32,000 nucleotides of DNA from the NCBI GenBank assembly GCA_946499885.1, contig CAMMTN010000011.1:12224-44223 (forward strand), read 5' to 3'. This DNA comes from an uncultured Clostridium sp. (GTDB lineage Bacteria; Bacillota; Clostridia; TANB77; CAG-508). Below, piece after piece: positions 5,185 to 32,000 of this stretch. The notes under the pieces are model-generated. The model made no database searches. It saw nothing but the letters and a program-made list of their open reading frames with translations, and had not been told where the DNA came from. The position numbers and the translations under genes are program-made. Position 1 is the stretch's first letter. Every line of letters begins with the position of its first letter.

Positions 5185-5192
5185 GAAAACGA

Positions 5193-10890: not shown

Positions 10891-10894
10891 GTAA

Positions 10895-10930
10895 AAAACT
10901 AGCAAATTCTTTAGAATTTAGCTAGTTTTC
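10895..10930 (+). terminator. Intrinsic terminator ending the insert operon
   Basis: AAAACTAGCAAATTC (10895-10909) pairs with GAATTTAGCTAGTTTT (10914-10929), with one bulge. Loop TTTA and a T-run. Confidence 0.65.
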
Positions 10931-10932
10931 AC

Positions 10933-10962
10933 TTGCAAAAATAAGCTATTTTATAGTATAAT
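10933..10962 (+). promoter_or_regulatory. Candidate gyrA promoter
   Basis: TTGCAA (10933-10938), 18 nt, TATAAT (10957-10962), about 45 nt upstream of the gyrA ATG. Confidence 0.5.
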
Positions 10963-11006
10963 ACACTTGTATTTAAAACATATGTGTGAAAGGACGGAAA
11001 ACAAAA

Positions 11007-13517: not shown

Positions 13518-13547
13518 AAAGGACTGAGTTTAATCAGTCCTTTTTTT
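13518..13547. terminator. Bidirectional terminator shared by gyrA (+) and the helicase-loader gene (-)
   Basis: AAAGGACTGA / TCAGTCCTTTTTTT: stem GGACTGA 13521-13527 / TCAGTCC 13534-13540, flanked by an A-run and a T-run. It overlaps the stop codon of the minus-strand gene. Confidence 0.7.
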
Positions 13548-14534: not shown

Positions 14535-14627
14535 TAAAATTTATATGATATATTTAAAAATAAATAATCATAATCTCCTTTTGCAATATATTTAGGTTTT
14601 TTATAAAGGATGTACCCATAAACCCAA

Positions 14628-15593
14628 TTATTTAAGATTCGCATATAAACTCTCTAAATTATCATAAGTTCTTTGTTCATATTTATTATATCCTGTTTGT
14701 TTTTCTAATTGTTTTACATTTTTATTTTTTTCTTTCATCTCAGATAAAAATTCCTGAACTTCATTTGAAGTTTTAAAACCTCTATCATGCCAATCAGTAA
14801 GTAATTTATCCAAATAATCAAAAGTAGGGTTAGCCTTTGAAGTTGTACGTTTTAATGCAATTTCAATAATATCCATACTAAATCCAAAATCAATAATCCA
14901 TTTTTCTATATACCCATACTCATATTGTGTAAGATTTCTAGAAATTCCTAATTTTTTTGAAATGGTTTTAGCAATTACATTTATTTTTTCTTGTTTTTCG
15001 TAATATGTATCTAAATCATTAAAACTTCTTATATTGTTTTTGTTCCAAGCCTCTGCTACTGTTTGTACATAATTTTTGTGAAGAGCAGATTTATCAAAAC
15101 AATATCCAAACAGAGCAATCATTACTTCTTCATCAAAATTATATTTTTTAAACCATAGTTCTATTTCAGGATACCAAGTAGTAGGCATAAGCCCTGAAAA
15201 ATATTTGTTGTTTATAAAATCAATTGCTTTTGCACGTTTTTGATTTTCAGCAGATTTTTTTAATTGGTCAGCAGATAAAGCAGTTTTAGGTTTATACAAT
15301 TTGTGTAATTCAATTTCTTGAATGCTATTAATAATATATCCAGTATTCTTCTTTGTTATTAAACATTTATCTTCCCAATATTTAACTGCATCTTGAATTG
15401 TTTTTAATGGAAGAACTAATTTTTTAGATAAATCATTTACTTTAATATCTTTATCATATTTTGATAAAAATACCATATATAAATATACTTTTATGAAATC
15501 GCCAGAAGCTTCTGATAAATATTCAGAAAAAAATATATCTGGTAATAAAGTATTTGAAAATAATGATGATAAGTCTGCACTTTCTAATTTCAT
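14628..15593 (-). CDS. DnaD/DnaB-type replication initiation (primosome) protein with two DnaB_2-like repeats
   Basis: The N-terminal LPDIFFSEYLSEASGDFIKVYLYMVF is winged-helix-like. There are two repeats of the DnaD C-terminal type (..ALFGYCFDK..YVQTVAEAWNKNNI.. and ..IIEIALKRT..FDYLDKLLTDWHDRGF..). RBS AAAGGGGGA. Confidence 0.8.
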   Translation of the reverse strand: MKLESADLSSLFSNTLLPDIFFSEYLSEASGDFIKVYLYMVFLSKYDKDIKVNDLSKKLVLPLKTIQDAVKYWEDKCLITKKNTGYIINSIQEIELHKLYKPKTALSADQLKKSAENQKRAKAIDFINNKYFSGLMPTTWYPEIELWFKKYNFDEEVMIALFGYCFDKSALHKNYVQTVAEAWNKNNIRSFNDLDTYYEKQEKINVIAKTISKKLGISRNLTQYEYGYIEKWIIDFGFSMDIIEIALKRTTSKANPTFDYLDKLLTDWHDRGFKTSNEVQEFLSEMKEKNKNVKQLEKQTGYNKYEQRTYDNLESLYANLK

Positions 15594-15729: not shown

Positions 15730-16014
15730 TTAATACTTTTTGTATAAATAAATTTTAGGTCTGCAAATATAAAAATATAAATATTGCAATATATATAATA
15801 TTTTTTCATGATTAAATCCTATTATACTAAATAAAGCAAAAGGCAAGAAAAGTATAATAAAAATACTAATTTTTACTGTTATATTAGGTATAAAAAAATA
15901 TACAAAAGCAAATATAATTAATCCCCATATTATATTTAAAATCACAGTAGTATAATCAATAAAACCTAATAACTTACTATTAAAATTATAATTTTGTGGA
16001 AAAATAAATTTCAT
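15730..16014 (-). CDS. PrgI/VirB3-like small conjugation membrane protein
   Basis: FPQNYNFNSKLLGFIDYTTVILNI followed by two TM helices and GFNHEKILYILQYLYFYICRPKIYLY, a PrgI/Tn916 Orf17-like layout. The ORF opens at GTG 16044, but ATG 16014 follows AAAGGAA by 11 nt. Confidence 0.55.
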   Translation of the reverse strand: MKFIFPQNYNFNSKLLGFIDYTTVILNIIWGLIIFAFVYFFIPNITVKISIFIILFLPFALFSIIGFNHEKILYILQYLYFYICRPKIYLYKKY

Positions 16015-16065
16015 ATAAAATACCATTCCTTTCTTTTGGTACACAAGTTATAAAAATAAATAAAA

Positions 16066-16956
16066 TTATTTTATATATCCTTTCAAAACTTTAAAATTCT
16101 GTGCAACATCTGTTGAAATACCTCCTATAAAATGTTGCACATAAGAATTTGCTCTAATTAAAGCATATATAGATCCAATGCACAATATTTTAGATGCAAC
16201 ATCTGGGCTTGCAAAATCTAAAGCAAATATTATTAATAAAACTATAGAAATAAAAGGTTGAACAAATAATAAAGATATAAATATTTTAAACCAAGATTTG
16301 AAAAACCAAGAACTAGAATTATTAATTAGTGTAAGTAAAGCAAAAGGGGTAAGAAGTACAAGAACTTTTACCATTATATATCTAAGAGAATATGAAAAAA
16401 GTAAACTCATAAAACTAGCAGAAATTAAACTTCTTAATAATCCATCAAAAGAAAAAACATTAAGGGTTGTAGAATCAATAGTTATTGTAGAATTTAAGTT
16501 TTCTATTAAATTAGAAAAACAAATTTTTTCACCTAATATATTTTGTCCAATTTCACGAATAGCATCAGAAATAAGAGAATTAAAATAAATAAAAGTTTCA
16601 CAAATAAAATAAGAGCAATTAATAAAAATTCCAAAAATTAATAATTTAAAAACAAATTGATAAGGTCTTTCTATTTGAATACCAGCAAAATATGAATATA
16701 GTAATTTAAAACAATAATATATGCACACAGCAAGTAACAATGAATTTGCAATTAGGATTAAGCTATTATTTGAATTATTATTAAATAATTTTTCAAATAA
16801 AGAATCATTAATAATATTAGTATTAATAAAAGATAATTCATCTAAAGTATTATAAACACTGTTATCAATAGAAGAAAATAATGTATTTAATAAAGTATTT
16901 ATTGTATCAATTATAACCTGTGAAATATTAGTTGTATTTGTAATTGCTTCTTCCAA
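16066..16956 (-). CDS. VirB6/TrbL-like polytopic conjugation channel protein
   Basis: Multi-TM protein (about 6 hydrophobic helices) with the family-like segment SYSLRYIMVKVLVLLTPFALL...WFKSWFKIF. The ORF opens at GTG 16995, but the in-frame TTG at 16956 sits 6 nt after GGAGGT (16968-16963). Confidence 0.6.
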   Translation of the reverse strand: MEEAITNTTNISQVIIDTINTLLNTLFSSIDNSVYNTLDELSFINTNIINDSLFEKLFNNNSNNSLILIANSLLLAVCIYYCFKLLYSYFAGIQIERPYQFVFKLLIFGIFINCSYFICETFIYFNSLISDAIREIGQNILGEKICFSNLIENLNSTITIDSTTLNVFSFDGLLRSLISASFMSLLFSYSLRYIMVKVLVLLTPFALLTLINNSSSWFFKSWFKIFISLLFVQPFISIVLLIIFALDFASPDVASKILCIGSIYALIRANSYVQHFIGGISTDVAQNFKVLKGYIK

Positions 16957-17042
16957 AAATATACCTCCAAAATAAAAATTTGATATAAAAACCACAAAAT
17001 TTATAAATTTAATAATAAAATATTTATTTAATAATTAAAAAA

Positions 17043-17390
17043 TTAATCAATTAAAGATTTAATAGCAGATAATATTAAATTAATTGCTAAAATAAATCCA
17101 TAAGAAAATAAGGATCCTCTGATTAATTTTTTTGCAACTCTAATTCTTTCTTCGTCACCAAAACTAAATTTTTTCATAAATACACCAACACCAACTGCAA
17201 CAGCAGCTGCAGGAGTAGCAAGAGTTAGAAGCCATCCTTCTATATCTTCAAAAGCATCATTTAGTTTTTTTACAAGCTCTGGTTCAGAATCAAAAAGTCC
17301 AGCCAAACTAATATTAGAAAATAAGAAAAATAATATAAATAAAAAGCAAATAGAATAAAAAATAATAAATTTAATTTTTTGTTTTTTCAT
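17043..17390 (-). CDS. VirB2/TrbC-like pilin-type small membrane protein
   Basis: 115 aa with a signal peptide (MKKQKIKFIIFYSICFLFILFFLFSNISLA|G) followed by two hydrophobic helices (LLTLATPAAAVAVGVGVF and LFSYGFILAINLILSAI). Topology and gene position are as for VirB2. Confidence 0.5.
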   Translation of the reverse strand: MKKQKIKFIIFYSICFLFILFFLFSNISLAGLFDSEPELVKKLNDAFEDIEGWLLTLATPAAAVAVGVGVFMKKFSFGDEERIRVAKKLIRGSLFSYGFILAINLILSAIKSLID

Positions 17391-17408
17391 AAAGTATCAT
17401 CCTTTCAA

Positions 17409-18959
17409 TTATTTTTTAAAATAAGGTTTTAATTTTATCTTTTGTGGCTTAATAATTTTATTACCATCAGATAAAAAAGATAAACTACAAAAATTTCCAA
17501 GTTCTTGGGTAAAAAACTTAGTATCATAAACATATTCATAGCTAATTTGTGTGCTAATACTTTCTGATATATTAGAATCAGTTGAATTTAAAGAATTAGT
17601 AATATAGCTATAATTAGTTTCTTTTGCATTTTCAGAAATACTTTTAAATATTTTTTCTTTATCTTCTTTACCAATTTGTTTTTGCGCATTTTCAATAGTA
17701 AAAATATCATCAGTTCTAAACCAAAATTTATTTACTAAATTTTGAATAATTACTTCTACAGAATATTTATTATTTAAAGTGTTTAAAAGGGAAGTATAAC
17801 TTTGTGTTGCTACAATATTTATACATTTTGCTTCTCTACTTTGGGCATAAAATTCACTATCTGAAACAGTTGCGTATTCATGATATTCATCTGATATAAA
17901 TGCAACAGTTCTAGAAGAATTTTTAAAATTGTGCGCAAGTCTTGCCATTACTTCTGATTGAAAATCTAGTTTTAAATAAGTTGCAATTATTTTAGATAAA
18001 ATTTTATACTCAGAAATATTCATATTTAAAACAACTATTTTTCCAGTATTAATTAAATCTTCAAAACCAAAGAAATTAAGTTCTTCTTTTTTGGGGTTAA
18101 AAGTAGAATATATCTCATAATCAGATACAAAGACATTTGTAATACGGGTAATTTCAGACTTTAAAATAGATAGAGTTCTTAAATCTAAAGATAAAAATTC
18201 TTTTTGAAAAAAAGTTAAACTAGATAATAAATTATAAATATCTTCTTTTGAAAATTCATTATTTATAAATTTATTTCGCAGTATTTCTATTTTTTCAAGA
18301 TAATAATTATTTTCAGAAATTAATTTATGTATTTCTTCAAAAGTGACATATCCATTATTATATAATCTACAAAGCTTGATACATTCTGCTAAAATTTGTT
18401 CTACTTTATCAAGCCAATAACTTTCAGAATTATTAGGAGAAAATAAAAGCAAAATTGTTTTTAATCTATTTGCTAAAACTGAAGCTTTTAAATTAGGTTT
18501 ATGTAAAGGATTATATTTATATTTTCCAGCTAAGCTAATTATAATTAAATCATTTTCTCTTTTAGCATTTTTAGCAAATTCAGAAACTTTAATATAATAA
18601 TTTCCTTTAACATCTAAAATAAGCATACCAATTTTATTTGAATTATCTAAAGCAGAATATTTAATTAATTGTTTAGTAAAAGGGTACATTGCACTACTTG
18701 TTTTTCCAGTACCAATAGTTCCTGTAATTAATATATTTTGATATAAACTTTTTTCTGATAAATATATGGGAATATTAGAAGAATAATTATTTCCAACAAA
18801 TAAATTTAAATCTTTTTTTATATTTTTTAAATTATTTTCGTTAAAAAAAGTATATTTATTTTTATTTAATTTTAATTTATAAAAAACAACGGAAATAAAT
18901 TTAAATATTTTTTTAAAATTAAATAAAATTAAAAACTTTTTTAATTTATTTAAAAACAA
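17409..18959 (-). CDS. virD4: VirD4/TraG-type type IV coupling protein (T4CP); annotated from TTG 18959, coding frame continues upstream
   Basis: Walker A LITGTIGTGKTSS, Walker B VAFISDEYHEYA, and ATQSYTSL (the QS..L motif of T4CPs). The N-terminal TM region lies in the same frame at 19280-18960 without an ATG, GTG or TTG. Confidence 0.8.
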   Translation of the reverse strand: MFLNKLKKFLILFNFKKIFKFISVVFYKLKLNKNKYTFFNENNLKNIKKDLNLFVGNNYSSNIPIYLSEKSLYQNILITGTIGTGKTSSAMYPFTKQLIKYSALDNSNKIGMLILDVKGNYYIKVSEFAKNAKRENDLIIISLAGKYKYNPLHKPNLKASVLANRLKTILLLFSPNNSESYWLDKVEQILAECIKLCRLYNNGYVTFEEIHKLISENNYYLEKIEILRNKFINNEFSKEDIYNLLSSLTFFQKEFLSLDLRTLSILKSEITRITNVFVSDYEIYSTFNPKKEELNFFGFEDLINTGKIVVLNMNISEYKILSKIIATYLKLDFQSEVMARLAHNFKNSSRTVAFISDEYHEYATVSDSEFYAQSREAKCINIVATQSYTSLLNTLNNKYSVEVIIQNLVNKFWFRTDDIFTIENAQKQIGKEDKEKIFKSISENAKETNYSYITNSLNSTDSNISESISTQISYEYVYDTKFFTQELGNFCSLSFLSDGNKIIKPQKIKLKPYFKK

Positions 18960-19598: not shown

Positions 19599-21407
19599 CT
19601 ATGTAATAGGAAGTATTATACTAAATGTAGTACCTTTTCCTTTTTCACTTTCAAAAGTTATATTTCCATTAAAATGAGCTCTAATGGTAGAATATGACAT
19701 AAATAGTCCTAAGCCGGTACCATTTTTACCTTTGGTCGTTATCATTTCTTTAAATAGTTTTTGCTTAACTTTATCAGGTAATCCATTTCCATAATCTTTT
19801 ACAGATATTATAATATTATTATCTTTTTTATCTAGTATTAAGTCAATACTTTTATTAGTTTCACCATTATATGCCTGTATACTATTTGAAATCATATTAT
19901 TTATAACTTGTACTAAACTTGTTATATCTCCATGAAGAACCGTGTTTTTATCGGTATTAAATTTTATATTTAATACAATCAATGCATTTTTTAATTCATG
20001 CTTCATTAAAATATTTACTCTTTTAATTAGTTCATCCAAATCAAAAGATGTTGATTCATTATCTGATAGAGTAACAGCTTGTCCTTTAACAGCAGTAATT
20101 ACATCAGACATATATTCTGAATATGATTTTATTTTATTCACCCATTCAGTCATATCTTTTGCAATAGCATGGTGATCATCATTGGTTACTTCAGGGTCAC
20201 CAATAGATTCATCATATTCTTTTATTAAATCTGATAGCCCTTCACTAGCTCCTGAAATTGACATTATAGGTGTTTTTAAGTTATGTGCAATTCCACCAAT
20301 TAATTGACCAAGTGAAGCTAATCTTTCTCTTTCCATAAGCATATTTTGGTTATTTTGAATTGTTTTTAAGTCGAGCATATGTTGAGTTGTATCTTTAAAT
20401 AATATAAGAATTCCTAAAAATTTTCCATCTGATTTTATTGCATTAATTTCTATATGGAAATATTTTTCTTCGTCCATTAATTTCTTTTCAAAATTGTATG
20501 TATCATCAGACATTTTTACCTCTTCAATATAATTTTTTAAATCTTCTTTTTTGAAATTAAAATAGTTTAATCCTGCAATAAAATCATAAAAATTTTGATT
20601 TCTGACAGAGATTTTTTCAAGTCCAAACATATTTAAAAAAGTTTGATTAAAATCAATAATTAAATCATCTTCGTTAATAACAACATAACCATCCGAAATT
20701 CTGTCTACAATTTTTTGGAGTGCGATAGGAGCAACAGTTAAAAATTCAAATTTGAATATGGCAATTGCGAAAAACAAAATTGTAAATGCGAAGCAAATAG
20801 GTGTTATGTAAATAGTCATAGGAATGATATTAAAAGTTCCCAAAATATTTATAGCTATTGGAATTAGCACGCCAATAACAATTAAAATAGACTGTTTAGA
20901 AAAGAAACCTGCATTTTTAACAGAATATCTCAAAAGATTTATTATACTAATTGCTAATAATCCATAAGTATATATATAATGTATGATAGTATAAGGACCT
21001 GTGATTGTATCATTTAAATTAGTAGAATATACTTTATAAAATAAATGATGATACTTATTTGTCCATAGTACAATTAAAGAAATTATTGGTACAATAAATA
21101 ATAATAAGTACCTTTTCTTAAATTTGATTTTGGTATTTGCAAAAACGAAACTTGTAAAAAATAAAGAAATAGGCAAAAAGCAAATACCAATATATGCAAA
21201 ATAGTCAAAAAATATTGGAGAAATATTAAATAAATCAGAAAATAGTATTTGACAAATTAAAGGAGCAAGCCAAATAAAAATTAATAATAAGTTTAATGTA
21301 AAAACATTAGCTAATGTATTCTTAAATTTATTTTCTTGAATATAAAAGTATAATGCTAGAGTTATAATTGTTGAAATAACTAACATTATTAAGTTAAAAG
21401 CATCCAT
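19599..21407 (-). CDS. Orphan sensor histidine kinase (N-terminal 7TM sensor domain, PAS, HisKA, HATPase_c)
   Basis: About 7 TM helices in aa 1-230, then a PAS-like segment (IVDRISDGYVVINEDDLIIDFNQTF). H-box GGIAHNLKTPI, N-box NNMISNSIQAY, G1 VKDYGNGLP, G2 GTGLGLFMS. No response regulator is adjacent. Confidence 0.9.
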   Translation of the reverse strand: MDAFNLIMLVISTIITLALYFYIQENKFKNTLANVFTLNLLLIFIWLAPLICQILFSDLFNISPIFFDYFAYIGICFLPISLFFTSFVFANTKIKFKKRYLLLFIVPIISLIVLWTNKYHHLFYKVYSTNLNDTITGPYTIIHYIYTYGLLAISIINLLRYSVKNAGFFSKQSILIVIGVLIPIAINILGTFNIIPMTIYITPICFAFTILFFAIAIFKFEFLTVAPIALQKIVDRISDGYVVINEDDLIIDFNQTFLNMFGLEKISVRNQNFYDFIAGLNYFNFKKEDLKNYIEEVKMSDDTYNFEKKLMDEEKYFHIEINAIKSDGKFLGILILFKDTTQHMLDLKTIQNNQNMLMERERLASLGQLIGGIAHNLKTPIMSISGASEGLSDLIKEYDESIGDPEVTNDDHHAIAKDMTEWVNKIKSYSEYMSDVITAVKGQAVTLSDNESTSFDLDELIKRVNILMKHELKNALIVLNIKFNTDKNTVLHGDITSLVQVINNMISNSIQAYNGETNKSIDLILDKKDNNIIISVKDYGNGLPDKVKQKLFKEMITTKGKNGTGLGLFMSYSTIRAHFNGNITFESEKGKGTTFSIILPIT

Positions 21408-21419: not shown

Positions 21420-24400
21420 CTATATATTTTTTATTAAATTTTCAATATATTTTTTTGTAATAATTGGCCATGAAAAACCTATTTTATGGAAAAAAGCTTG
21501 AGAAAAATTATTTTCTATTTTAATAGGTGTATCATATATTAATTTATGGTCACTATTTAAATCATTTAATATATGTGAAAGAACATATTTTTTTTCGTCA
21601 TTTTTTAACATATTATTTATAATATTTCTAAACTCTAAATCTGAAACAATATCAATTTTATATTTTTTAGGTAGTAAATTAATAAAATTTTCTATATAAA
21701 CATGATTTTGATTAAATATATGTAAAACGGATATATTTTTATCCAAATATTCTATGCTTTTCACAATAGCTTCTGCAACATAATCAACAGGACTAAATTC
21801 CATGTATTTATCCAAAATATAATCTGGTAGAGCAGAAATTTCCAAAAAGGCTTTTATTTTATTTGCAAAAGCATTTTCACTTGAGTTAAGTTGAAATTTG
21901 CCATCTGAAAATCTATTTGTGATATTTCCTATCCTTAATATTAAAGCATTTAAGTTACCTTTGCTTATTTCCTCTAAAATATTTTTCTCAGCTTCAAATT
22001 TACTATGTACATATACATTTTCCATTGATTGTCCTATATAAAGGTTATTTTCATTAAAACTTACATTAGATGTAAAACTGTTATTATTAACGGCAAAGTC
22101 AGCCAAAGTATTTCCAGAAACACTTATAGTAGATATTTGTATTAATCTTTTATTATATCTTTCACAAAATTCAATTAATTTTCTTACACTCGTTGTATTA
22201 ATTGCTTCAAAATCACTATAGTTTCCATAATGCTTTACTACTGCTGCAGTATTTATTACACAAGAAATATTATTACTAATAGAGAAAAGCTTTTCGTCTG
22301 TTAAGCCTAATTTATCTTGAGTTAAATCTGAGTTTATAATAAATATACGTTTATTTATTAAATTATCATATATATTTCCAAAATAAAAATGTAACTTGTT
22401 TAAAACTTTATCAGTTAATGAAATACTAGGGTCTTTTCTTACTAAACAATAAATTTTAATATCAGTATTTTTTATTAAATAATCTAATATATGTGCACCC
22501 AAAAATCCAGTTACACCAGTTAATAAAACATTTCCTATTGGATTATATGTAAGATTACTTAAATTATCAATATTATTTTTACTTAACACATTGTTTATAT
22601 TAGAGTAATCATAGTTTGCGTAAGAATCAAGAGATGTATCAATAATATTCATTTTTTTATCTATAAAAGTTGATAATTTACGTATGGTATTATATTTAAA
22701 AATTTCTGCATATGTAACATTAATATTTTCTTTTAATAATACTATTTGCATTTTTAATGCGAGTAAAGAATCGCCACCAATCTCAAAAAAGTTATCTAAA
22801 ACACTTATTGGTGATATGCAAAGCAATTTTTCCCAAATTTTAGAAATTTTACATTCTGTGTCTGTTTTAGGTAAAATAATGTGTTTATTGGTGTTAACAA
22901 AATTAGGTTCTGGTAATGATTTTACATCAATTTTTCCATTAGGTGTGTATTTAAAATCATCTATTTGCATAATGTATGTAGGAAGCATATAGTTTGGTAA
23001 AAACATACTTAAATACTGTTTTAATTCAGCTACAGGTATTCTGTTTTTAGAAATAAAATATGCACATAAAATCTGTCTATCAAAAGAATCTTTGGTTGCA
23101 GTAACTTTGACATTTTCTATTCCTTTAAAAGTTAAAAATATTTTTTCAATTTCACCTAATTCAATTCTTAAACCTCTAATTTTTACTTGAAAATCAGATC
23201 TTCCTAAATAAACTAATTCGCCATTATCTGACCATTTAGCCAGGTCGCCAGTATCATAAATTTTTTGATAATTATTATAAGGATTATCTAAAAATCTTCT
23301 ATTTGTTAAATCTTGATTATTTAAATAACCTTTACATACTCCATCTCCACCAATATATAATTTACCAGGAACATTAGTTGGAAGAAGTTTTAAATTATTA
23401 TCTAAAATATACATAGTAGTATTAGATATAGGAGTTCCGATATTAATATTATCTGTGTCAGTTAAATCTTTTATAGAAGACCAGACAGTAGTTTCTGTAG
23501 GACCATACATATTGTAAATTTTAGCTTTAGTTAAACCTTTTATTTTTTGTAATAGTTTATAAGGAAAAGGTTCTCCACCTAGCATAATAACCTTAAGTTT
23601 TTTTAAATATTCCAAAGAAGAATTATCACTAATTAATAATGAGAACTTTGAAGGAGTAGTTTGTAACATTGTAACACCATGCTTAATACATAATTGATTA
23701 AGTAACTCTGGAATTGTCTGTTCAGATTCGTTTGCAATAACAATTGTTATTCCTTTTTGCAATGGCAAGATGGATTCAAGCACAAATATATCAAAACAAA
23801 TTGTAGTAATAGAAACTATTACTTTTTCAAACTGTATTTTAGAAGTGGTTCCTTGTATAAAATTATTTACATTTTTGTGAGTTATTGCAACACCTTTTGG
23901 ATTTCCAGTAGAGCCAGAAGTATATATTACATATGCTAAATCATTAGGAGATATTACTTTATTTAAATTATTAGTGTCATATTTTTTATATGCAATGCTA
24001 GTATGTAATGAAACATCAATTATATCAACAATATCAAAGCAAATTGAAGAATCATTAGTTAAAATCAATTTAACATTACTATCCTTTGTTATATAACTTA
24101 TTCTATTTTTAGGATAAGTTGGGTCTATTGGTAAATATGCTGCTCCTGTTTTTAATATTGCAAGCATGCTAACCATAATTTCTAATGAGCGAGGGAGCAT
24201 AATTCCAACAATAGAATTATTTGTAACACCATTTTCAATTAAATATCTTGCTAATTGGTTAGCTTTTTCATTTAATTCCCTATATGTTAGTTTTTGGTCT
24301 TCGAAAACAACAGCAATATTATTTGGAGTTTCTTCTACTTGTTTCTCAAACAAATCTACAATCGTTTTATCACGAGGGTAGTCTACTGTAGTATTATTAA

Positions 24401-27400
24401 AATTATATAATATTTGTTTTTTCTCTTCTTCTGAAAGCATATCAATATCAGCTATTTTTGTATTAGCGTCTTTCAAAACACTATTTAATATGTTTATATA
24501 ATGTGATGCAAATCTTTCTATAAAATTTTTATCAAATAATTTTGTACAATATTCAAAACGTAAAGATAATTTATCCTCAAAAGGTATAATTTCTAAAGAC
24601 AAGTCGAATTTTGAAATATTGTTATCTGGTATAAAATATTTAGATTTTATACCTTTAAAATCTATTTCTGGATACCCATTATTCTGATAAATAAACATAA
24701 TATCAAATAATGGATTTCTGCTAGCATCTCTTTTAATATTTAATTGTTTTACCAATTCATCAAAAGGATATGTTTGATTTTTGAAAGCTGATAAACAGTA
24801 ATTTCTAATATTATTTGCAAAATCTTCAAAACTTGCATTATGATTTACTGTATTTCTTAGAGCCAATGTATTAACAAACATTCCTAAAACATTTGAAAGC
24901 TCTGGCAATTCTCTTCCAACAATAGGCGTTCCAATAACAATGTCATCTTGAGAAGTATATTTTGAAAGTAATATATAAAAAACAGATAACATTAGCATAT
25001 ATGGAGTAATTTTTAGTTTTTTAGACACATTATTTATATTATCAAAAATATCTCTATTTAAATTAATATAATAGTTACTACCCTCAAAGCTTTGTACAGA
25101 AGGTCTAGCATAAGTTGTAGGCATATTTAATAAAGGTATTTCATCTTTATATTGTTTAAGCCAAAAATCTCTTGCTTGTGCAAATTCTTTTCTATTAAAT
25201 TGTTGCTTTTCCCATACTGCAAAATCTGTATAATCTATATGTTTTTCAGGTAATTCTTTTTCATTATATAAATCACATAATTCTTTAATAAAAATAGTTA
25301 AAGAGGCTCCATCACTAATAATATGATGCATATCTAGTAAAAGTAAAGAATGATTATCCTTTAAATTTAATAATTTTGTCCTAAATAAAGGCGCTTTACT
25401 TAAATCAAAAGGTTTAACAAAGTCTTTAAATAAATCTTCAATAGAAGAATCTTTTTGGTTTTCTACTATTAAATTAAAATCTATGTTGTTTTTTACTTTT
25501 TGAACAATCTCATCATTTAATAAAGTAAATGATGTTCTAAAAGACTCATGTCTATTTATTAAGATTCTAATGCAATTTTCTAATTTATTAACATCTGGTA
25601 TTTTATCAAATATAAGACCGCCAGAAATATTATATAATAAAGAATTTGTATCCATACTAGAAGCATAGTAAATTCTTTTTTGAGCAGAAGAAACAGGGTA
25701 ATATTCCTTCTTTGTAGCCTTTGAAATTGTTATAGTTTCTTTATTATTTGTTAAGTTAGATGAAATATAATCTGATAAATCTTTAATAACAGAATGCTCA
25801 AATATATCCTTAACAGATATAGATAGATTATATCTTGTACTTAAATAAGTTGATAAAGAAATTGCACTTAGTGAATCTCCACCAATATCAAAAAATGAAC
25901 TATCTATACTTATTTGCTTTAAATTAAACATATCACATATTTTATTTATAATACATTCATCTATTAAATTACGTGCAGGAACTATCCTATTCTCCTCAAA
26001 AGCAGGCATAGGAAGTGATTTGCGGTCTAATTTCCCACTAATAGTAAGAGGTAAACTTTCAACCTGCAAAATATATTTTGGAATCATATACTTAGGCAAG
26101 TAATCTGCAACAAATGCTTTTAGATTATTTACATTAATTTGTTCATCAGCAATAATGTATGAGCAAATTGCTTTTTGATTATTTAATTCTATTAATATAG
26201 ATATACTTTGCTTTATGCCATTATATTTTAATATATTTGTATCAATGTCTTCTAGTTCTATACGGTATCCACGTAGTTTAATTTGCTTATCTAGTCTTGT
26301 TAAAAATACAAGATTTCCATCAGGTAACCATTTTACTTGATCACCAGTTTTGTAAATAATTCCTTCACCAAAAGGATTTTTAACAAATTTTTGTTTAGTA
26401 AGTTCATAATTATTTATATATCCTCTAGCAATGCCATCTCCACCAACCCATAATTCTCCAGGAACACCAATTGGTTGTAAAGTTCCAGTTTTAGACACTA
26501 CATAACAAGTAGAATTTGAAATAGGCTTTCCTATTGGAATTATTCCATCCTTCTCATTTCCTGAAATTTGATAACATGTTGAATAAGAACCATTTTCAGT
26601 AGGTCCATAGCAATTAATTATTTGTACTTTTGGACAAGCAGAAATTACTTTTGCAATGTGTTTTGGAGATATTACATCACCACCAGTTAATAAATAACGT
26701 ACACTTGCAAAAATACTTGGATCTTCATTTATCAATTGATTTAAAAGCCCTGTTGTTAAAAATAAAATAGAAATTTGTTTTTCTTTAATAAAATTCTTCA
26801 TATATGAAAAGTCCATTAATCTTGCTTTAGGGAGAATATGTAGTTTAAAACCATTTAATAAAGCACCAAAAATTTCAAAAATGCAGGCATCAAAAACAAT
26901 AGTTCCCGTTTGAACCATAATTTCATGTTCCCTAAAGCTCAAGAAATTTGGATTTTTTACAAGTCTTACAATATTTCTTTGCTTTACCATAACACCTTTT
27001 GGAGTTCCAGTAGAACCTGATGTATAAATAATGTATATTAAATCTTCAGGTGTAATTGAAATTTCTAAATTATCTTTATTAGCGTTATTTCCATATATAA
27101 ATGATGAATCTAAATCTATTTCTAAATAACTTACATTTAAAATCTTGACCATTTCACAAAGCTTATGACTTGTTAATATTAGACTAGGATTAGAATTAGA
27201 TATTATATATGATAAACGTTCTACAGGAAGCTCAAAATCTAATGGTAAAAAGCATGCTCCTGCTTTTAAAATTGCTAACATTCCTATTATCATTTCCAAA
27301 GATTTATCAATAAATAATCCAACAATATCACCATTTTTTATTTGGTAATTTAACTTTAAAAAGTGAGCTAATTGATTTACTTTTTCATTTAATTCACCAT

Positions 27401-28853
27401 AAGTTAGTTCTTCATTTTCAAAGTTTATGGCAATTTCATTAGAATGTTTTTTCACTTGTTCTTCAAATAATTCTATAATTGTTTTTTCGTAAGGATAAGC
27501 TATTTTTGTATTATTAAAAAGAGTTAATATTTGATTTTTTTCTTCAGGAGTGACAATTTCTAAATCTTTTAAACAATTTACATTATTATCAACAATTTGA
27601 CTAATCATATATAAAATACGGTTATGAATCTTTTCAATTTCGCTTTCTGTATATTTAGAAACTTTGTAGTCATAAGCAATATTTAAATTATTATCATTTA
27701 AGTCAAATAGGTGAATATCAATATCATCTGCTATACAATTATCAAAAATCCAATTACTCGTATGAGGAATTTGGTCTTGATTTTCAGTAATTTTTGTTAT
27801 TTGATAAGAAACTACAATGTTATATAAAGATGGAAGTGAAGTATTTTTTACTCTTAAATCTTCTAAAATTGTTTCATATCCGTATTTTTGATGTCTTAAT
27901 AAAGAAAGTGAGCCTTGTGCAATATTTGTAGCAAAAGTTTTAAAGTCTAAAGCATCATCTATTTGTATACGAAGTGGTAAAACATTAACAAACATACCAC
28001 AAGTATTTTTTTCTTTAAAATTAGAACGATTTAAAACAGGAGTACCTATACAAAAGTCGTTTAAATTAGACACTCTTCCTAAATAAATAGAATAAATTGC
28101 CATAAAAAAGTTAAACAACGAAATTTTATTCAAAGAAGCATATTCAGATATTTTGCACATTAAGTCTTTTGGAATAGAATATAATTTCCTATTTGCATTA
28201 ATAGAATTAGCATTATTTGCATATTGGCTAGGTATTGTAGCAATATCAGGAACTGTTTGAAATAAACTATTCCAGTACTCTTTATCCTTTTCAAATTTTT
28301 TACTGTTTCTATATTCTTTTTCAGAAATAATATAATCTATGTATGAAGGATTTTCTATATTTTCAATTTCTTGAGAATTATTATTTAGAAGATAAGAATA
28401 ATATGTGACAATTTCATTGCCCATAATTCCTAAGTTCCAAGAGTCAGAAATAATGTGATGGTTGTTAATAATAAAACCACCATGATTATTAGGAAGTTTA
28501 AACATTTTGAATTCAAATAAAAAAGAGTCTAAAAAATTAAATGGTGTATTTGCCATTTTTTGAGCCATTAAGTCCATTTCTTTTTCAGATGAAAGAGATA
28601 ATAACTCAATTTCTATAGGTTCATAATCATCAACATATTGCATAAGTTTATCATTTTGAATAATAAATTTTGTATGATATACATCATTATTTTTAATAAA
28701 CAATTGAATTGCGTTATTTAATATATCAAAATTTACTGGCTCATTAATAGTAAGTACGCCACATACATTATTAATATTTGTACCACTGTAGTAATTCTCT
28801 GTATGCCAAATAGATTTTTGAGGAGTAGTTAATTCATATAAACTTTTTTCCAT
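21420..28853 (-). CDS. Two-module non-ribosomal peptide synthetase with terminal thioester reductase (C-A-T-C-A-T-R)
   Basis: Approximate domain map in nt: C1 27552-28838 (HHIISDS), A1 26007-27488 (YTSGSTGTPKGV, GELWVGGDGIARGY, GKLDRKSLP), T1 25767-25979 (FFDIGGDSL), C2 24432-25709 (HHIISDG), A2 22911-24380 (YTSGSTGNPKGV, YGPTETT, GKIDVKSLP), T2 22662-22874 (FFEIGGDSL), R 21462-22535 (LLTGVTGFLGAHI, YVHSK). The ORF opens at TTG 28871, but ATG 28853 follows AAAGGA by 9 nt. Confidence 0.95.
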   Translation of the reverse strand: MEKSLYELTTPQKSIWHTENYYSGTNINNVCGVLTINEPVNFDILNNAIQLFIKNNDVYHTKFIIQNDKLMQYVDDYEPIEIELLSLSSEKEMDLMAQKMANTPFNFLDSFLFEFKMFKLPNNHGGFIINNHHIISDSWNLGIMGNEIVTYYSYLLNNNSQEIENIENPSYIDYIISEKEYRNSKKFEKDKEYWNSLFQTVPDIATIPSQYANNANSINANRKLYSIPKDLMCKISEYASLNKISLFNFFMAIYSIYLGRVSNLNDFCIGTPVLNRSNFKEKNTCGMFVNVLPLRIQIDDALDFKTFATNIAQGSLSLLRHQKYGYETILEDLRVKNTSLPSLYNIVVSYQITKITENQDQIPHTSNWIFDNCIADDIDIHLFDLNDNNLNIAYDYKVSKYTESEIEKIHNRILYMISQIVDNNVNCLKDLEIVTPEEKNQILTLFNNTKIAYPYEKTIIELFEEQVKKHSNEIAINFENEELTYGELNEKVNQLAHFLKLNYQIKNGDIVGLFIDKSLEMIIGMLAILKAGACFLPLDFELPVERLSYIISNSNPSLILTSHKLCEMVKILNVSYLEIDLDSSFIYGNNANKDNLEISITPEDLIYIIYTSGSTGTPKGVMVKQRNIVRLVKNPNFLSFREHEIMVQTGTIVFDACIFEIFGALLNGFKLHILPKARLMDFSYMKNFIKEKQISILFLTTGLLNQLINEDPSIFASVRYLLTGGDVISPKHIAKVISACPKVQIINCYGPTENGSYSTCYQISGNEKDGIIPIGKPISNSTCYVVSKTGTLQPIGVPGELWVGGDGIARGYINNYELTKQKFVKNPFGEGIIYKTGDQVKWLPDGNLVFLTRLDKQIKLRGYRIELEDIDTNILKYNGIKQSISILIELNNQKAICSYIIADEQINVNNLKAFVADYLPKYMIPKYILQVESLPLTISGKLDRKSLPMPAFEENRIVPARNLIDECIINKICDMFNLKQISIDSSFFDIGGDSLSAISLSTYLSTRYNLSISVKDIFEHSVIKDLSDYISSNLTNNKETITISKATKKEYYPVSSAQKRIYYASSMDTNSLLYNISGGLIFDKIPDVNKLENCIRILINRHESFRTSFTLLNDEIVQKVKNNIDFNLIVENQKDSSIEDLFKDFVKPFDLSKAPLFRTKLLNLKDNHSLLLLDMHHIISDGASLTIFIKELCDLYNEKELPEKHIDYTDFAVWEKQQFNRKEFAQARDFWLKQYKDEIPLLNMPTTYARPSVQSFEGSNYYINLNRDIFDNINNVSKKLKITPYMLMLSVFYILLSKYTSQDDIVIGTPIVGRELPELSNVLGMFVNTLALRNTVNHNASFEDFANNIRNYCLSAFKNQTYPFDELVKQLNIKRDASRNPLFDIMFIYQNNGYPEIDFKGIKSKYFIPDNNISKFDLSLEIIPFEDKLSLRFEYCTKLFDKNFIERFASHYINILNSVLKDANTKIADIDMLSEEEKKQILYNFNNTTVDYPRDKTIVDLFEKQVEETPNNIAVVFEDQKLTYRELNEKANQLARYLIENGVTNNSIVGIMLPRSLEIMVSMLAILKTGAAYLPIDPTYPKNRISYITKDSNVKLILTNDSSICFDIVDIIDVSLHTSIAYKKYDTNNLNKVISPNDLAYVIYTSGSTGNPKGVAITHKNVNNFIQGTTSKIQFEKVIVSITTICFDIFVLESILPLQKGITIVIANESEQTIPELLNQLCIKHGVTMLQTTPSKFSLLISDNSSLEYLKKLKVIMLGGEPFPYKLLQKIKGLTKAKIYNMYGPTETTVWSSIKDLTDTDNINIGTPISNTTMYILDNNLKLLPTNVPGKLYIGGDGVCKGYLNNQDLTNRRFLDNPYNNYQKIYDTGDLAKWSDNGELVYLGRSDFQVKIRGLRIELGEIEKIFLTFKGIENVKVTATKDSFDRQILCAYFISKNRIPVAELKQYLSMFLPNYMLPTYIMQIDDFKYTPNGKIDVKSLPEPNFVNTNKHIILPKTDTECKISKIWEKLLCISPISVLDNFFEIGGDSLLALKMQIVLLKENINVTYAEIFKYNTIRKLSTFIDKKMNIIDTSLDSYANYDYSNINNVLSKNNIDNLSNLTYNPIGNVLLTGVTGFLGAHILDYLIKNTDIKIYCLVRKDPSISLTDKVLNKLHFYFGNIYDNLINKRIFIINSDLTQDKLGLTDEKLFSISNNISCVINTAAVVKHYGNYSDFEAINTTSVRKLIEFCERYNKRLIQISTISVSGNTLADFAVNNNSFTSNVSFNENNLYIGQSMENVYVHSKFEAEKNILEEISKGNLNALILRIGNITNRFSDGKFQLNSSENAFANKIKAFLEISALPDYILDKYMEFSPVDYVAEAIVKSIEYLDKNISVLHIFNQNHVYIENFINLLPKKYKIDIVSDLEFRNIINNMLKNDEKKYVLSHILNDLNSDHKLIYDTPIKIENNFSQAFFHKIGFSWPIITKKYIENLIKNI

Positions 28854-28899
28854 TTTAAATGATCCTTTCAAAATATATATTCTCTACAATTACAAAAAA

Positions 28900-28928
28900 A
28901 TTATATACTTAAAAAGAATAAAAATCAA
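28900..28928 (-). promoter_or_regulatory. Candidate NRPS operon promoter
   Basis: On the minus strand: TTGATT (28928-28923), 17 nt, TATAAT (28905-28900). Confidence 0.5.
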
Positions 28929-28935
28929 CAAAATC

Positions 28936-28964
28936 TTGAAAAATTTTACATTTTATATTACAAT
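28936..28964 (+). promoter_or_regulatory. Candidate divergent promoter of the acyl-CoA synthetase gene
   Basis: TTGAAA (28936-28941), 17 nt, TACAAT (28959-28964). It lies back to back with the NRPS promoter, 7 bp apart. Confidence 0.45.
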
Positions 28965-29023
28965 ATGGTTACTGTTTAGTATAAAAATAAATATACACAA
29001 AAACAACTAATGCATCTTAGATG

Positions 29024-29071
29024 GCAATGGACATTTTCTTTCTTCATGAAGTTAAAAGAAAAGTACATTGC
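29024..29071 (+). promoter_or_regulatory. Imperfect 17-18 bp hairpin/palindrome in the acyl-CoA synthetase leader (operator or RNA structure)
   Basis: GCAATGGACATTTTCTTT (29024-29041) pairs with AAAGAAAAGTACATTGC (29055-29071). The loop contains the palindrome CTTCATGAAG. The element is GC-richer than its surroundings. Confidence 0.4.
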
Positions 29072-29130
29072 GACTAATTATAAATATTAACAATAAATAA
29101 TATTACATTTGAAAACAAGGAGGAATTTTA

Positions 29131-30822
29131 ATGGAAAAAAGATATCATGAAGAAATATCAAATTTTAGGGAATTAGTAAAAAGATATGAAAGTTTTGGAG
29201 AAAATATTGCTTTTAAGTACAAAGAAAATAAGGAGATACAAGAAATAACATATAATCAGTTTGCTAAAGATATTAAAAAAGTTGCAGAAAAAGTGTTAGC
29301 TTCAGATGTAAAAAGAGTAGCATTAATAGGAAACAATAGATATGAGTGGTGTATTACATATTTAGGTGTAACTACAGCAGGAAGAATTATTGTACCACTT
29401 GATAAAGCATTAACAGATAAGGAAATTGAAAAATTATTAAAAAGAAGCAAAGCAGATGCAATTGTATATGATGAAAAATATCAAAATGCTGTTGATGAAG
29501 CCACAGAGCAAGGCTGCAATATTAAATATAAAATATGCATGGATGATATTAAAAAAGATGGAATATTAAATTTTAAAGAGCTACTTAAAGATGGAGAAAA
29601 TATAATAAAAGAAGGAAAATCAAAATACGATGATGTAAAATTAAAAGAAAATGAAATGTATATTATGTTATTTACATCTGGTACAACAAATGAACCAAAA
29701 GCTGTTATGCTATCCCAAGAAAATATATGCAAAAACATTTCAGCATATCAATACAATTTTATGATATATCCTTCAGATACCCTACTTTCATTTTTACCAA
29801 TACACCACACATTTGAATGTAGTATAACATTTATATATGGTACATATTGTGGAGCTACAATAGCATTTTGCGAAGGACTAAAACACATAGCAAATAATTT
29901 AAAAGAATTTAAGGTATCTATTTTTGTAGCAGTTCCACTTGTACTTGAAACAATGGCTAAAAAGATTCAAAAAGCTATTGCAGATAGTGGTAAACAAGGA
30001 ATGATAGATGTAATGACAAAGATATCTAATGTTCTTTTAAAATGCAAGATAGATTTAAGAAAAAAGATATTTAAACCTGTATTAAAACAATTTGATGAAT
30101 ATTTAAGAGTTGTACTCTATGGTGCTGCACCAATGGATAAAGCTACAATACAATGGTATAACAACTTAGGCATAGAGCTAATTCAAGGATATGGACTAAC
30201 TGAAAGTTCTCCAGTTTTAACAGCAGAATCATCTGAAAGAAAAAGAGCAGGTTCTATAGGAATTCCTCTAAAAAATGTAGAAATAAAAATAGATAATCCA
30301 GATAAAGATGGAGTTGGAGAGATAATGGCAAAAGGACCTAATATAATGCTTGGATATTATGAAAATGAAGAAGCTACAAAAAAAGCATTAGAAGATGGTT
30401 GGTTACACACAGGAGATTATGGATACATAGATGAAGATGGATTTACATTTGTAACAGGAAGAAAGAGCGATATTATAGTTTTAAGAAATGGAAAGAATAT
30501 ATATCCTCAAGAGATAGAGTTTTTAATAAATAAACTACAATATGTAGATGAATGTATGGTATATTCTAGGGAAAAGACAAAAACAGATACACTTTTATGT
30601 GCAAAAATTGTGTATAACAAAGAAAATATAGTAGACCAATTTGGAGAAAAATCTGGGGAAGAATATGAAAAATTAATTTGGCAAGATATTAAAGAAATTA
30701 ACAAAGATCTTCCTACATATAAGCATATAAAGGAAATAATTGTTACAGACGAACAACTAGAAAAAACAACAACACAAAAAGTAAAAAGATATGTGGAAAT
30801 GAAGAAAATGGAAGCAAAATAA
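29131..30822 (+). CDS. Long-chain fatty acid-CoA ligase (AMP-forming acyl-CoA synthetase, FadD/FAA-type)
   Basis: Motifs MLFTSGTTNEPKAVMLSQENI, QGYGLTESSP, GEIMAKGPNIMLGYY, WLHTGDYGYIDEDGFTFVTGRKSDIIVLRNGKNIYPQEIE. RBS AAGGAGG. Confidence 0.88.
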   Translation: MEKRYHEEISNFRELVKRYESFGENIAFKYKENKEIQEITYNQFAKDIKKVAEKVLASDVKRVALIGNNRYEWCITYLGVTTAGRIIVPLDKALTDKEIEKLLKRSKADAIVYDEKYQNAVDEATEQGCNIKYKICMDDIKKDGILNFKELLKDGENIIKEGKSKYDDVKLKENEMYIMLFTSGTTNEPKAVMLSQENICKNISAYQYNFMIYPSDTLLSFLPIHHTFECSITFIYGTYCGATIAFCEGLKHIANNLKEFKVSIFVAVPLVLETMAKKIQKAIADSGKQGMIDVMTKISNVLLKCKIDLRKKIFKPVLKQFDEYLRVVLYGAAPMDKATIQWYNNLGIELIQGYGLTESSPVLTAESSERKRAGSIGIPLKNVEIKIDNPDKDGVGEIMAKGPNIMLGYYENEEATKKALEDGWLHTGDYGYIDEDGFTFVTGRKSDIIVLRNGKNIYPQEIEFLINKLQYVDECMVYSREKTKTDTLLCAKIVYNKENIVDQFGEKSGEEYEKLIWQDIKEINKDLPTYKHIKEIIVTDEQLEKTTTQKVKRYVEMKKMEAK

Positions 30823-30892: not shown

Positions 30893-31030
30893 ATGAATGA
30901 TTATATAAAACAAGATAAAAAGAAAAAGCTAAAAGGAGAGTTATCAAGGGTAGGCATACTTCTTTTAGTTTTTTTGTGCTTAATTTTATCTTACATATTA
31001 TACAATAAAACTCGGAGTAAGCCAAAGTAA
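30893..31030 (+). CDS. 45-aa ORF encoding a basic N-terminus plus one TM helix; probably the detached membrane anchor of the downstream protease
   Basis: RBS AGGAG (30878-30882), ATG 30893. It reads MNDYIKQDKKKKLKGELSRVGILLLVFLCLILSYILYNKTRSKPK and ends at TAA 31028-31030. The protease frame (+1) is already open from 30984. Confidence 0.4.
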   Translation: MNDYIKQDKKKKLKGELSRVGILLLVFLCLILSYILYNKTRSKPK

Positions 31031-31064
31031 TTTAGATAATACAAATGTTGCTATAGAAAGAACT

Positions 31065-32000
31065 ATGCAAAATATAGAAGAGGTAAAAGAAAAGAATAAA
31101 ACTGTAACAGAGATGATTGCAGGTATAAATAATAGTGTTGTAGGGATTTCAAAAGTACAAAATAGTGGTACTAGCATATTTTCAGATGATAATATAACAA
31201 GCTTAGGTTTAGGTACAGGATTAATTGTTACAAAAAACGGATATATTTTAACAAATGCTCATGTTAGTGGAGAAAAGTATAGCAAATGCTATGTTACTTT
31301 AGTAGATGGAAAAACTTATGATGGAAGTGTAGTTTGGTCAAATACAGATATAGATATGTCTATTGTAAAAATAAATCAAAATAATTTGGAGGTGGCGGTT
31401 TTAGGAGATTCAGACAGTATCAAGGTAGGAGAAACTGTATATGCAATAGGAAATCCAATAGGGTATGAGTTTCAAAGGACAGTAACATCAGGGATTATAA
31501 GTGCCTTGAATAGAACAATTAAATTTGAAGAAGATGAAAATGAAACATATATGGAAGATTTAATACAGACAGATGCGACAATAAATCCAGGAAATAGCGG
31601 AGGTCCTCTTATTAATGTAGATGGAGAAGTAATTGGTATAAATGGAGTAAAAATAACATCAGCAGAAGGAATAAGTTTTGCAATACCTATAAATACAGTA
31701 AAAAGTGTTATATCAAGTTTTGAGCAAACAGGAAAATTTGAAGAAGCAAGCTTAGGAGTATTTGCTTTTGATAAAAATGTATTAGGATATATTGATGAAA
31801 ATTTAAGATTTAATCAGGGAATATATGTAGCAAAAGTAAACGCAAACTCAGCTGCAAAAGATGCAGGAATAAAAAGTGGAGATATAATACTTTCAATAGA
31901 TGGAAATAAATTAGAGAGAATGTGTGATTTAAGATGCTATATTTATACCAAAAAGCCAGGAGATAAGGTTAAATTAAAAATTCAAAGAAATTATAGAGAA
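31065..32000 (+). CDS. htrA: HtrA/DegP-family serine protease with PDZ domain (3' end outside window; first in-frame ATG at 31065, frame open from 30984)
   Basis: Catalytic triad contexts GYILTNAHV, DIDMSIVKI and GNSGGPLINVDGEVIGI. PDZ segment GIYVAKVNANSAAKDAGIKSGDIILSIDGNKL. Confidence 0.88.
   Translation, partial: MQNIEEVKEKNKTVTEMIAGINNSVVGISKVQNSGTSIFSDDNITSLGLGTGLIVTKNGYILTNAHVSGEKYSKCYVTLVDGKTYDGSVVWSNTDIDMSIVKINQNNLEVAVLGDSDSIKVGETVYAIGNPIGYEFQRTVTSGIISALNRTIKFEEDENETYMEDLIQTDATINPGNSGGPLINVDGEVIGINGVKITSAEGISFAIPINTVKSVISSFEQTGKFEEASLGVFAFDKNVLGYIDENLRFNQGIYVAKVNANSAAKDAGIKSGDIILSIDGNKLERMCDLRCYIYTKKPGDKVKLKIQRNYRE

Follow-up and report, generated by a model that had tools for sequence, protein, structure and literature searches.

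A 32,000-nucleotide stretch of contig CAMMTN010000011.1 (assembly GCA_946499885.1) from an uncultured Clostridium sp., referred to here as the window, encodes a dimodular nonribosomal peptide synthetase (NRPS) with the domain order C-A-T-C-A-T-R, in which condensation (C), adenylation (A) and carrier (T) domains precede a terminal reductase (R). The gene most tightly tied to this synthetase is one that an earlier note on the same DNA did not mention, a co-transcribed gene for a histidine kinase with a sensor of seven transmembrane helices (7TM). What is new in this locus and its relatives is the conserved, translationally coupled seven-helix kinase, the sensor of which tracks NRPS specificity. 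The best reading of this arrangement is that NRPS and kinase form a synthase-receptor signalling pair, in which a self-produced signal would be recognized by a matched receptor, and we consider the case for and against this reading to be evenly balanced. In the proposed mechanism, an aliphatic amino acid (Xaa) would be loaded by A1, its amine would probably be acylated by C1 from acyl-CoA or from an acylated acyl carrier protein (acyl-ACP), and the acyl-Xaa would be coupled by C2, an LCL-type domain, to glycine loaded by A2. The R domain would release the resulting thioester as an aldehyde, (N-acyl)-Xaa-glycinal, which may be reduced further to an ethanolamide, and the lipophilic product would most likely be bound by the seven-helix sensor of the kinase.

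The first line of evidence is the junction between the two genes, which are adjacent and co-oriented. The kinase gene starts 12 nt after the NRPS stop codon, and a GGAGG sequence overlaps the TAG stop and lies 8 nt before the kinase ATG, so that NRPS and kinase are almost certainly translated together from a single mRNA. The conservation of this junction was assessed in related loci, defined as the 80 best of 490 stretches that match a C1-domain profile among GTDB species representatives. Open reading frames (ORFs) were called in the 80 loci and then clustered. A kinase gene lies directly downstream of the NRPS gene in all 60 loci that extend far enough; 53 of these kinases have the canonical 7TM-PAS architecture, five carry an alternative sensor, and two are split or duplicated. 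Nearly all of the 80 loci come from metagenome-assembled genomes (MAGs) of uncultured Clostridia, recovered from the guts of rabbits, humans (Hadza, HGM, MGYG), mice, chickens, goats and deer. Clostridium sp. CAG:273 and Candidatus Scatovivens are among the sources, and one locus is 98% identical to the window. The NRPS protein itself was 99% identical on the six contigs that were read, four of which were shown to represent separate samples with the same neighbouring genes.

The architecture of the sensor and the genes behind the kinase point to how a signal might be received and relayed. An AlphaFold model of the kinase sensor (pLDDT 84) contains seven helices connected by loops of at most 14 residues, followed by a PAS fold, with no extracellular domain; such a compact bundle would suit a ligand that partitions into the membrane. 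A Foldseek search of the PDB with this model found neighbours for the PAS part only and none for the seven-helix part. The signal would in many relatives be relayed from the kinase to a response regulator of REC-HD-GYP architecture, of the type that acts as a phosphodiesterase of cyclic di-GMP (c-di-GMP). A gene for this regulator lies directly behind the canonical kinase gene in 24 of 49 loci, and the regulator is 73–89% identical among loci. Among the five loci with an alternative sensor, it directly follows the kinase in four and is found further downstream in the fifth.

Comparison of the related loci revealed that the kinase sensor changes together with the predicted specificity of the synthetase. 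A-domain codes vary widely among species, including Gly-, Val-, Pro- and Thr-like codes as well as several without assignment, and the mean identity among loci is 68% for the kinase core and 47% for the seven-helix sensor. The analysis used 88 pairs of kinases with catalytic cores at least 80% identical. The ratio of 7TM identity to core identity was 0.90–1.03 (mean 0.97) in the 13 pairs with the same A1 and A2 codes, compared with a mean of 0.64 in the 75 pairs in which at least one code differs, 72 of which had a ratio of 0.79 or less. When codes were shuffled within kinase-core clades, the observed difference was reached in none of 5000 trials, and each of the eight 7TM clusters formed at 70% identity or more contains a single A2 code. 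In a partial Mantel test with R-domain and kinase-core identity as controls, 7TM identity was associated with the A2 code (r = 0.30, p ~ 0.0005), and the same test gave nothing for the PAS domain or the kinase core; the R domain, which served as a control, lies between A2 and the sensor. In this comparison of non-independent pairs and predicted codes, the sensor co-diversifies with the specificity of the putative signal.

In 72 of the 75 pairs with a differing code, sensor identity falls to about 50–65%, even across 3–4.5 kb of near-identical DNA. In one mosaic pair (L054/L064), identity is 0.37–0.51 in A1 and 0.52 in the 7TM region, and the 4.5 kb between them, comprising C2-A2-T2-R, is 0.89–0.98 identical, with a value of 0.80 for the PAS domain. 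A second mosaic pair (L058/L059) is 0.25–0.34 identical in A1-T1 and 0.50 in the 7TM region; C2-A2-T2 falls within 0.87–0.97, as does C1, and the PAS domain and kinase core within 0.92–0.98. A2 modules that share a code but belong to unrelated lineages are only 0.67–0.87 identical, with C2 at 0.33–0.60, which indicates that the DNA intervening in the mosaic pairs was inherited vertically. Simple physical linkage thus fails to explain the pattern. A kinase sensor that changes with synthetase specificity suggests that the peptide is a bacterial signal, and not only a protease inhibitor. Species would then differ in their A-domain specificities and carry matched sensors, in the manner of pherotypes.

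Several variants of the gene pair were observed among the related loci. In L012, L021, L028, L034, L081 and L084, the NRPS relative is about 1410–1450 aa long, presumably a one-module C-A-T-R enzyme, and is followed by a kinase of about 667 aa with a different, longer membrane sensor and a catalytic core 66–75% identical to that of the window kinase. Other short NRPS relatives (L044, L053 and L069) keep the 7TM-PAS kinase. Two tandem kinase genes stand behind one NRPS gene in L075. The MAG CANQCT01 appears to hold two NRPS-kinase-REC-HD-GYP sets with different codes (L038 and L067), which are 44% identical in the NRPS, 41% in the sensor, 66% in the kinase core and 80% in the regulator; bin contamination is possible in this case.

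The synthetase on which the proposed signal depends is, by its domain content, intact and of a known kind, the NRPSs with a terminal reductase of gut Clostridia. Its minus-strand ORF (28871–21420) has 2483 open codons, too long to be a chance product in the very AT-rich DNA of the window (about 24% G+C), and the ATG at 28853 is preceded by a GAAAGGA ribosome-binding site. Pfam models identified two Condensation, two AMP-binding(+C) and two PP-binding domains and a terminal NAD_binding_4/Epimerase domain, in the colinear order of a modular NRPS that ends in a thioester reductase (Table 1). The domain order and motifs given in the earlier note were all found at the expected places. All catalytic residues are present, namely HHxxxD, the carrier Ser, the A-domain core motifs, GxxGxxG and a Thr/Tyr/Lys triad, and the 47 dimodular relatives keep these motifs, except that the triad Thr is replaced by Ser in two of them. 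C2 scored 330 bits against the TycC C domain (2JGP) and 251 bits against the LgrA C domain, and is by these scores a standard LCL domain. The protein database contains many relatives of 2460–2560 aa with the same architecture, along with three-module versions of about 3510 aa. The NCBIfam equivalog model for AusA (NF047350) aligned with aa 359–2472 at 1600 bits, below its cut-off of 2500 bits.

Table 1. Features of the NRPS-kinase locus and its divergent side (positions are those of the window).
Feature	Position	Strand	Basis
Dimodular NRPS, C-A-T-C-A-T-R, 2477 aa	21420..28853	-	Pfam order, translation
C1, starter-position condensation (aa 1-440)	27534..28853	-	HHIISDS at 28440-28460, aa 132-138
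A1 adenylation, code DAFFLGCSYK, aliphatic-type pocket (predicted)	26004..27491	-	Motif alignment
T1 carrier, GGDSL at aa 991, Ser994	25731..25970	-	Pfam and motif
C2, LCL-type condensation (aa 1049-1482), HHIISDG aa 1176-1182	24408..25709	-	Structure-sequence scores
A2 adenylation, code DILQMGMVWK, Gly-like	22899..24350	-	Motif alignment
T2 carrier, GGDSL at aa 2026, Ser2029	22656..22868	-	Pfam and motif
R, terminal thioester reductase; TGVTGFLG aa 2112, ISTISV aa 2240, YVHSK aa 2281	21423..22529	-	PF07993, 147 bits
Histidine kinase: 7TM sensor (aa 1-228), PAS, HisKA, HATPase_c	19599..21407	-	Pfam PF16927, PAS, HATPase_c
Divergent intergenic region, 277 bp, NRPS / acyl-CoA synthetase	28854..29130	.	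Sequence
ANL-family acyl-CoA synthetase, 563 aa, possible acyl donor supplier	29131..30822	+	PF00501, PF23562
HtrA/DegP-like serine protease with PDZ, cut by window end	30894..32000	+	85% identical to L007 HtrA

The specificity residues of both A domains were re-derived by counting against the PheA motifs by hand and from columns of a MAFFT alignment. The residues obtained, D-A-F-F-L-G-C-S-Y(-K) for A1 and D-I-L-Q-M-G-M-V-W(-K) for A2, reproduce exactly the codes proposed earlier. Our reading of the A1 code as Ile/Leu-like suggests that this domain loads an aliphatic amino acid; a search of the literature for the specificity codes, including DAFFLGCSYK, returned no match. The assignment of a Gly-like code to module 2 was likewise recovered, and A2 would accordingly be expected to load glycine. 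Its code is identical at 8 of 10 positions to DILQLGLIWK, which we take to be the Gly code of the Stachelhaus table, and the match count depends on that assumed reference. Compared with solved domains, A2 is no closer to the Gly-activating domain of LgrA, which has a different code, than to the LgrA Val domain (338 versus 325 bits).

The function of C1 determines whether the product would be acylated. C1 begins at aa 1, with no PP-binding or A-T ORF nearby, and thus occupies the position of a starter C (Cs) domain. Single-sequence scores for C1 were 90 bits against TycC, 62 bits against the surfactin starter C and 57 bits against the rhizomide starter C. Family-profile scores were 156 bits for BacC and 152 bits for TycC, both C domains of elongation modules, compared with 121 bits for SrfAA-Cs, 120 bits for RzmA-Cs and 66 bits for CDA-C1, so that C1 is about as far from the solved starter domains as from LCL domains. 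The generalization that an N-terminal C domain without an upstream carrier normally performs lipoinitiation is too strong for enzymes of this domain order. In a comparison of 331 C domains taken from 120 homologues, every one of the 95 domains nearest to C1 was an N-terminal C domain of the window-NRPS family (mean identity 51%). The remaining domains are at most 35% identical to C1, except for the N-terminal C domain of one 3605-aa three-module relative (41%), and C1 has a mean identity of 22% to C domains at the N-terminus of other large NRPSs and of 23% to those at internal positions. By these distances, C1 constitutes its own clade, confined to the protein start, and is not demonstrably a canonical lipoinitiation domain. 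Nevertheless, H132, H133 and D137 are kept without exception in 16 family members, each of the 47 dimodular relatives has the motif HHxxxD[S/A], and C1 is the most conserved domain of the NRPS (mean identity 0.51, versus 0.43–0.44 for the A domains and 0.44 for R), which argues that it is catalytically used. C1 probably caps the amine of the first amino acid with an acyl group, and N-acylation of the product is plausible.

A possible source of the acyl group is the acyl-CoA synthetase encoded on the divergent side, which had been proposed as the supplier. The divergent AMP-binding ORF was confirmed at the position given for it. Searches of NCBIfam and the PDB matched it best to long-chain fatty-acid-CoA ligases and FadD13, in each case below the cut-off; for the FadD type, the best match was PRK06187 with 272 bits against a cut-off of 476 bits. 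The gene divergently adjoins the NRPS gene in only 22 of 69 related loci, and occurs in the clade closest to the window.

If C1 did not acylate, H-Xaa-Gly-H would cyclize and oxidize to a 3-alkyl-2(1H)-pyrazinone, a known class of bacterial signal, and we regard this outcome as somewhat unlikely. The pyrazinone route implies a non-acylated dipeptide, because a free N-terminal amine is needed. C-A-T-C-A-T-R enzymes, including the gut family of Fischbach, have been described as typically giving rise to 5-unsubstituted pyrazinones, and pyrazinone signals occur in Vibrio, E. coli and myxobacteria (PMC10979478). The separation of C1 from solved starter C domains, its motif ending in Ser or Ala instead of Gly, and the lack of the acyl-CoA synthetase in two thirds of related loci are also consistent with a free amine. 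However, the conservation of C1 and its invariant His-His-Asp would be unexpected for a vestigial domain, and the acyl-CoA synthetase shares a promoter region with the NRPS in the window. In addition, at least one Clostridium cluster yields an N-octanoyl product: N-octanoyl-Met-Phe-H, an N-acyl dipeptide aldehyde, was obtained from the gut Clostridia NRPS of BGC0001686, and a further example is the N-acylated Leu-Glu aldehyde ruminopeptin (PMC8518294). The earlier step from an N-terminal C domain to an N-acylated product that cannot cyclize is thus plausible, although pyrazinones are reported from the same architecture. An N-terminal C domain alone is a poor ground for predicting lipoinitiation.

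Reductive release of Xaa-Gly is well founded in the alignment of the R domain. Its Thr, Tyr and Lys are matched in the alignment by the corresponding residues of the AusA R domain (4F6C/4F6L) and of 6VTJ, in agreement with the terminal SDR-type reductase described previously. The domain scored 187 bits against the Mru_0351 PCP-R structure (6VTJ), 125 bits against the AusA R domain and 83 bits against the MxaA R domain. The predicted product is probably Xaa-Gly in N-acylated, aldehyde form, with the pyrazinone and the ethanolamide as alternatives. The latter would arise by four-electron release, in which R or a separate aldo-keto reductase produces the alcohol, N-acyl-Xaa-ethanolamide, and we consider this route unlikely. 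Such an end would resemble that of linear gramicidin, the C-terminal ethanolamine of which is made from Gly by LgrD-R plus LgrE. The R domain is closer to the aldehyde-forming AusA R than to the alcohol-forming MxaA R, although this is weak evidence, and no aldo-keto reductase gene lies within the window. R domains are able to produce alcohols, and neither structure nor sequence as yet reveals how far the reduction proceeds (PMC8024701). Of the proposed release as aldehyde or alcohol, it is thus the reductive step that stands, the choice between two- and four-electron reduction not being predictable from sequence.

The closest solved relative of the T2-R region (21423–22868) is the NRPS Mru_0351 (6VTJ/6VTZ), which also belongs to a gut anaerobe and the product of which is unknown (PMC8024701). 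It differs in its archaeal host, the rumen species Methanobrevibacter ruminantium, and this likeness is a hint of NRPS transfer among gut anaerobes.

Several observations weigh against the interpretation of NRPS and kinase as synthase and receptor. Besides the non-independence of the co-variation pairs and the predicted nature of the codes, all of the loci are MAGs of one broad lineage. When 21 independent sister pairs were compared for the A2 code alone, the association was not significant (p = 0.15). The same predicted dipeptide is accompanied by sensors 47–50% identical in distant lineages (L073/L077 versus L082/L036), and the sensor is conserved despite differing A1 in three pairs. In the closest comparison, between the window and L007, which has a Val-like code where the window has a Gly-like one, divergence runs without interruption across C2-A2-T2-R-7TM, so that this case could be accounted for by linkage alone. 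The 32-kb window contains no homologue of the REC-HD-GYP regulator, and no transporter or phosphopantetheinyl transferase gene. As to the chemistry, C1 does not group by profile score with characterized Cs domains rather than with LCL/DCL domains, and C-A-T-C-A-T-R enzymes are reported to give non-acylated pyrazinones (PMC10979478).

The main rival to the signalling interpretation is the published model for gut NRPS-reductase clusters, in which the aldehyde would be exported against cysteine or serine proteases of the host or of neighbouring bacteria, and the kinase would sense another cue or be a mere neighbour. Gut NRPSs yield peptide aldehydes with inhibitory activity against cathepsins and proteasomes (PMC8518294; PMC10979478), and an HtrA-type serine protease is linked to the synthetase in most relatives. 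In the window, the HtrA-like gene follows the acyl-CoA synthetase gene after 71 nt with its reading frame intact, and the corresponding protein of locus L001 is annotated with Trypsin_2 and PDZ domains. The gene lies within three genes of the NRPS-kinase pair in 53 of 68 loci; in three of the 53 (L019, L023 and L024), it has moved behind the kinase and is still linked. Because all loci belong to one broad lineage, part of the synteny reflects common descent rather than selection. This model leaves unexplained why the 7TM region is replaced together with A domains while core, PAS domain and intervening NRPS DNA remain 80–98% identical, and a glycinal warhead without a P1 side chain would, in our judgement, be odd for cathepsin-type S1 pockets. 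As the primary explanation of the locus, we consider it improbable. WalK, which the nearby HtrA gene might bring to mind by analogy with Bacillus, was ruled out as the identity of the kinase by a WalK model score of 71 bits against a cut-off of 725 bits and by the REC-HD-GYP type of the associated regulator.

Extended to the family of about 490 loci, the signalling interpretation would describe a quorum-sensing-like system rather than a primarily host-directed protease-inhibitor pathway, a proposal that we advance only tentatively. Each species would make its own (acyl-)peptide aldehyde and recognize it by a matched kinase with an HD-GYP relay, and swaps of A domains and sensors would generate pherotypes. 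Such an arrangement would be the first autoinducer system encoded by an NRPS and diversified into pherotypes.

Arrangements of this kind have well-known counterparts. In CqsA/CqsS, LqsA/LqsS and Rpf, the gene for a signal synthase stands beside that of a polytopic membrane histidine kinase that senses the lipophilic product, and in RpfB-RpfF-RpfC-RpfG an acyl-CoA ligase and a REC-HD-GYP output regulator are further components. In agr and ComQXP, signal and sensor have diversified in step into pherotypes. The window differs from all of these in that its synthase is an NRPS with a reductase, neither synthase nor sensor is homologous to theirs, and we infer ligand sensing for its kinase.

Among NRPS systems, the gut Clostridia NRPS-reductase clusters of Guo et al. 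(2017), such as BGC0001686, and the rup cluster of Ruminococcus bromii are alike in host, in C-A-T-C-A-T-R order and in a dipeptide aldehyde product with optional N-acyl group (PMC8518294; PMC10979478). Compared by description only, the window NRPS differs from them in its predicted C-terminal Gly and in its translational coupling to a 7TM-PAS kinase with a sensor that co-varies with specificity. In the accessible literature, which did not include Guo et al. (2017), no paper was found that links such an NRPS to a histidine kinase or HD-GYP regulator. AusA, the aureusimine synthetase of S. aureus, shares the A-T-C-A-T-R core and an aldehyde-releasing R domain, but has no N-terminal C domain, other A-domain codes and no adjacent kinase. 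In the CorA/CorB system of Corallococcus, a 5-methylpyrazinone, which is an NRPS-derived dipeptide carbonyl product, serves as morphogen or signal, and in myxobacteria corA is always accompanied in its cluster by the DegP/HtrA-like gene corB (PMC10979478), comparable to the HtrA linkage described above. CorA differs as an NRPS-PKS hybrid with thioesterase release and no reported kinase, and HtrA linkage in the window-related loci could be inherited synteny.

The intergenic region between the divergent NRPS and acyl-CoA synthetase genes contains a promoter-like sequence, TTGATT-17-TATAAT, at 28928–28900 on the minus strand; this is a consensus match only, and scans for promoters and terminators are uninformative in DNA this rich in AT. 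Rfam models identified no riboswitch, in particular none for c-di-GMP. At the two divergent gene starts (28844–28867 and 29117–29140), the DNA contains an inverted repeat of 24 nt with 79% complementarity, which spans the ribosome-binding site and first codons; both proteins begin with MEK.

The start of the window is the neighbourhood of the replication origin, with dnaN, recF, gyrB and gyrA. Between the last two genes lie 5.8 kb of DNA with 15–19% G+C (5184–10986), in which a VirB4-like conjugal ATPase gene appears to be divided into two ORFs, 5475–5972 (model positions 126–266) and 7090–8925 (positions 277–893), separated by 1.1 kb of ORF-free DNA. They are followed by a ParA/MinD-like ORF (8950–10146) and an ORF of no assigned family (10171–10890). 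Behind the kinase, at 15730–18959, lie genes for a TrwB/TraD-like coupling protein, two membrane proteins and a 115-aa protein with a weak match to type IV secretion system (T4SS) pilins. These conjugation-like ORFs occupy the position of the REC-HD-GYP gene of relatives, and genes for type IV coupling protein (T4CP)-like proteins are also found behind the kinase in about 15 related loci. With a coupling protein on one side of gyrA and a VirB4-like gene on the other, gyrA seems to be flanked by remnants of a conjugative element. Next to gyrA, on the opposite strand (13530–15593), are genes for a DnaD-domain protein and for a DnaI/DnaC-like loader (PRK06835, 335 bits), which probably serve chromosomal replication and do not belong to the conjugation-like block.

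Short clusters of the NRPS-reductase type belong to the most widespread biosynthetic genes of gut metagenomes, and there is no consensus on their native role. If the kinase is the receptor, their products would be bacterial signals with species-specific "dialects". The receptor would already be identified, making a direct test with synthetic ligand and kinase possible. Peptide aldehydes would also be linked to c-di-GMP control in uncultured gut Clostridia with small genomes.

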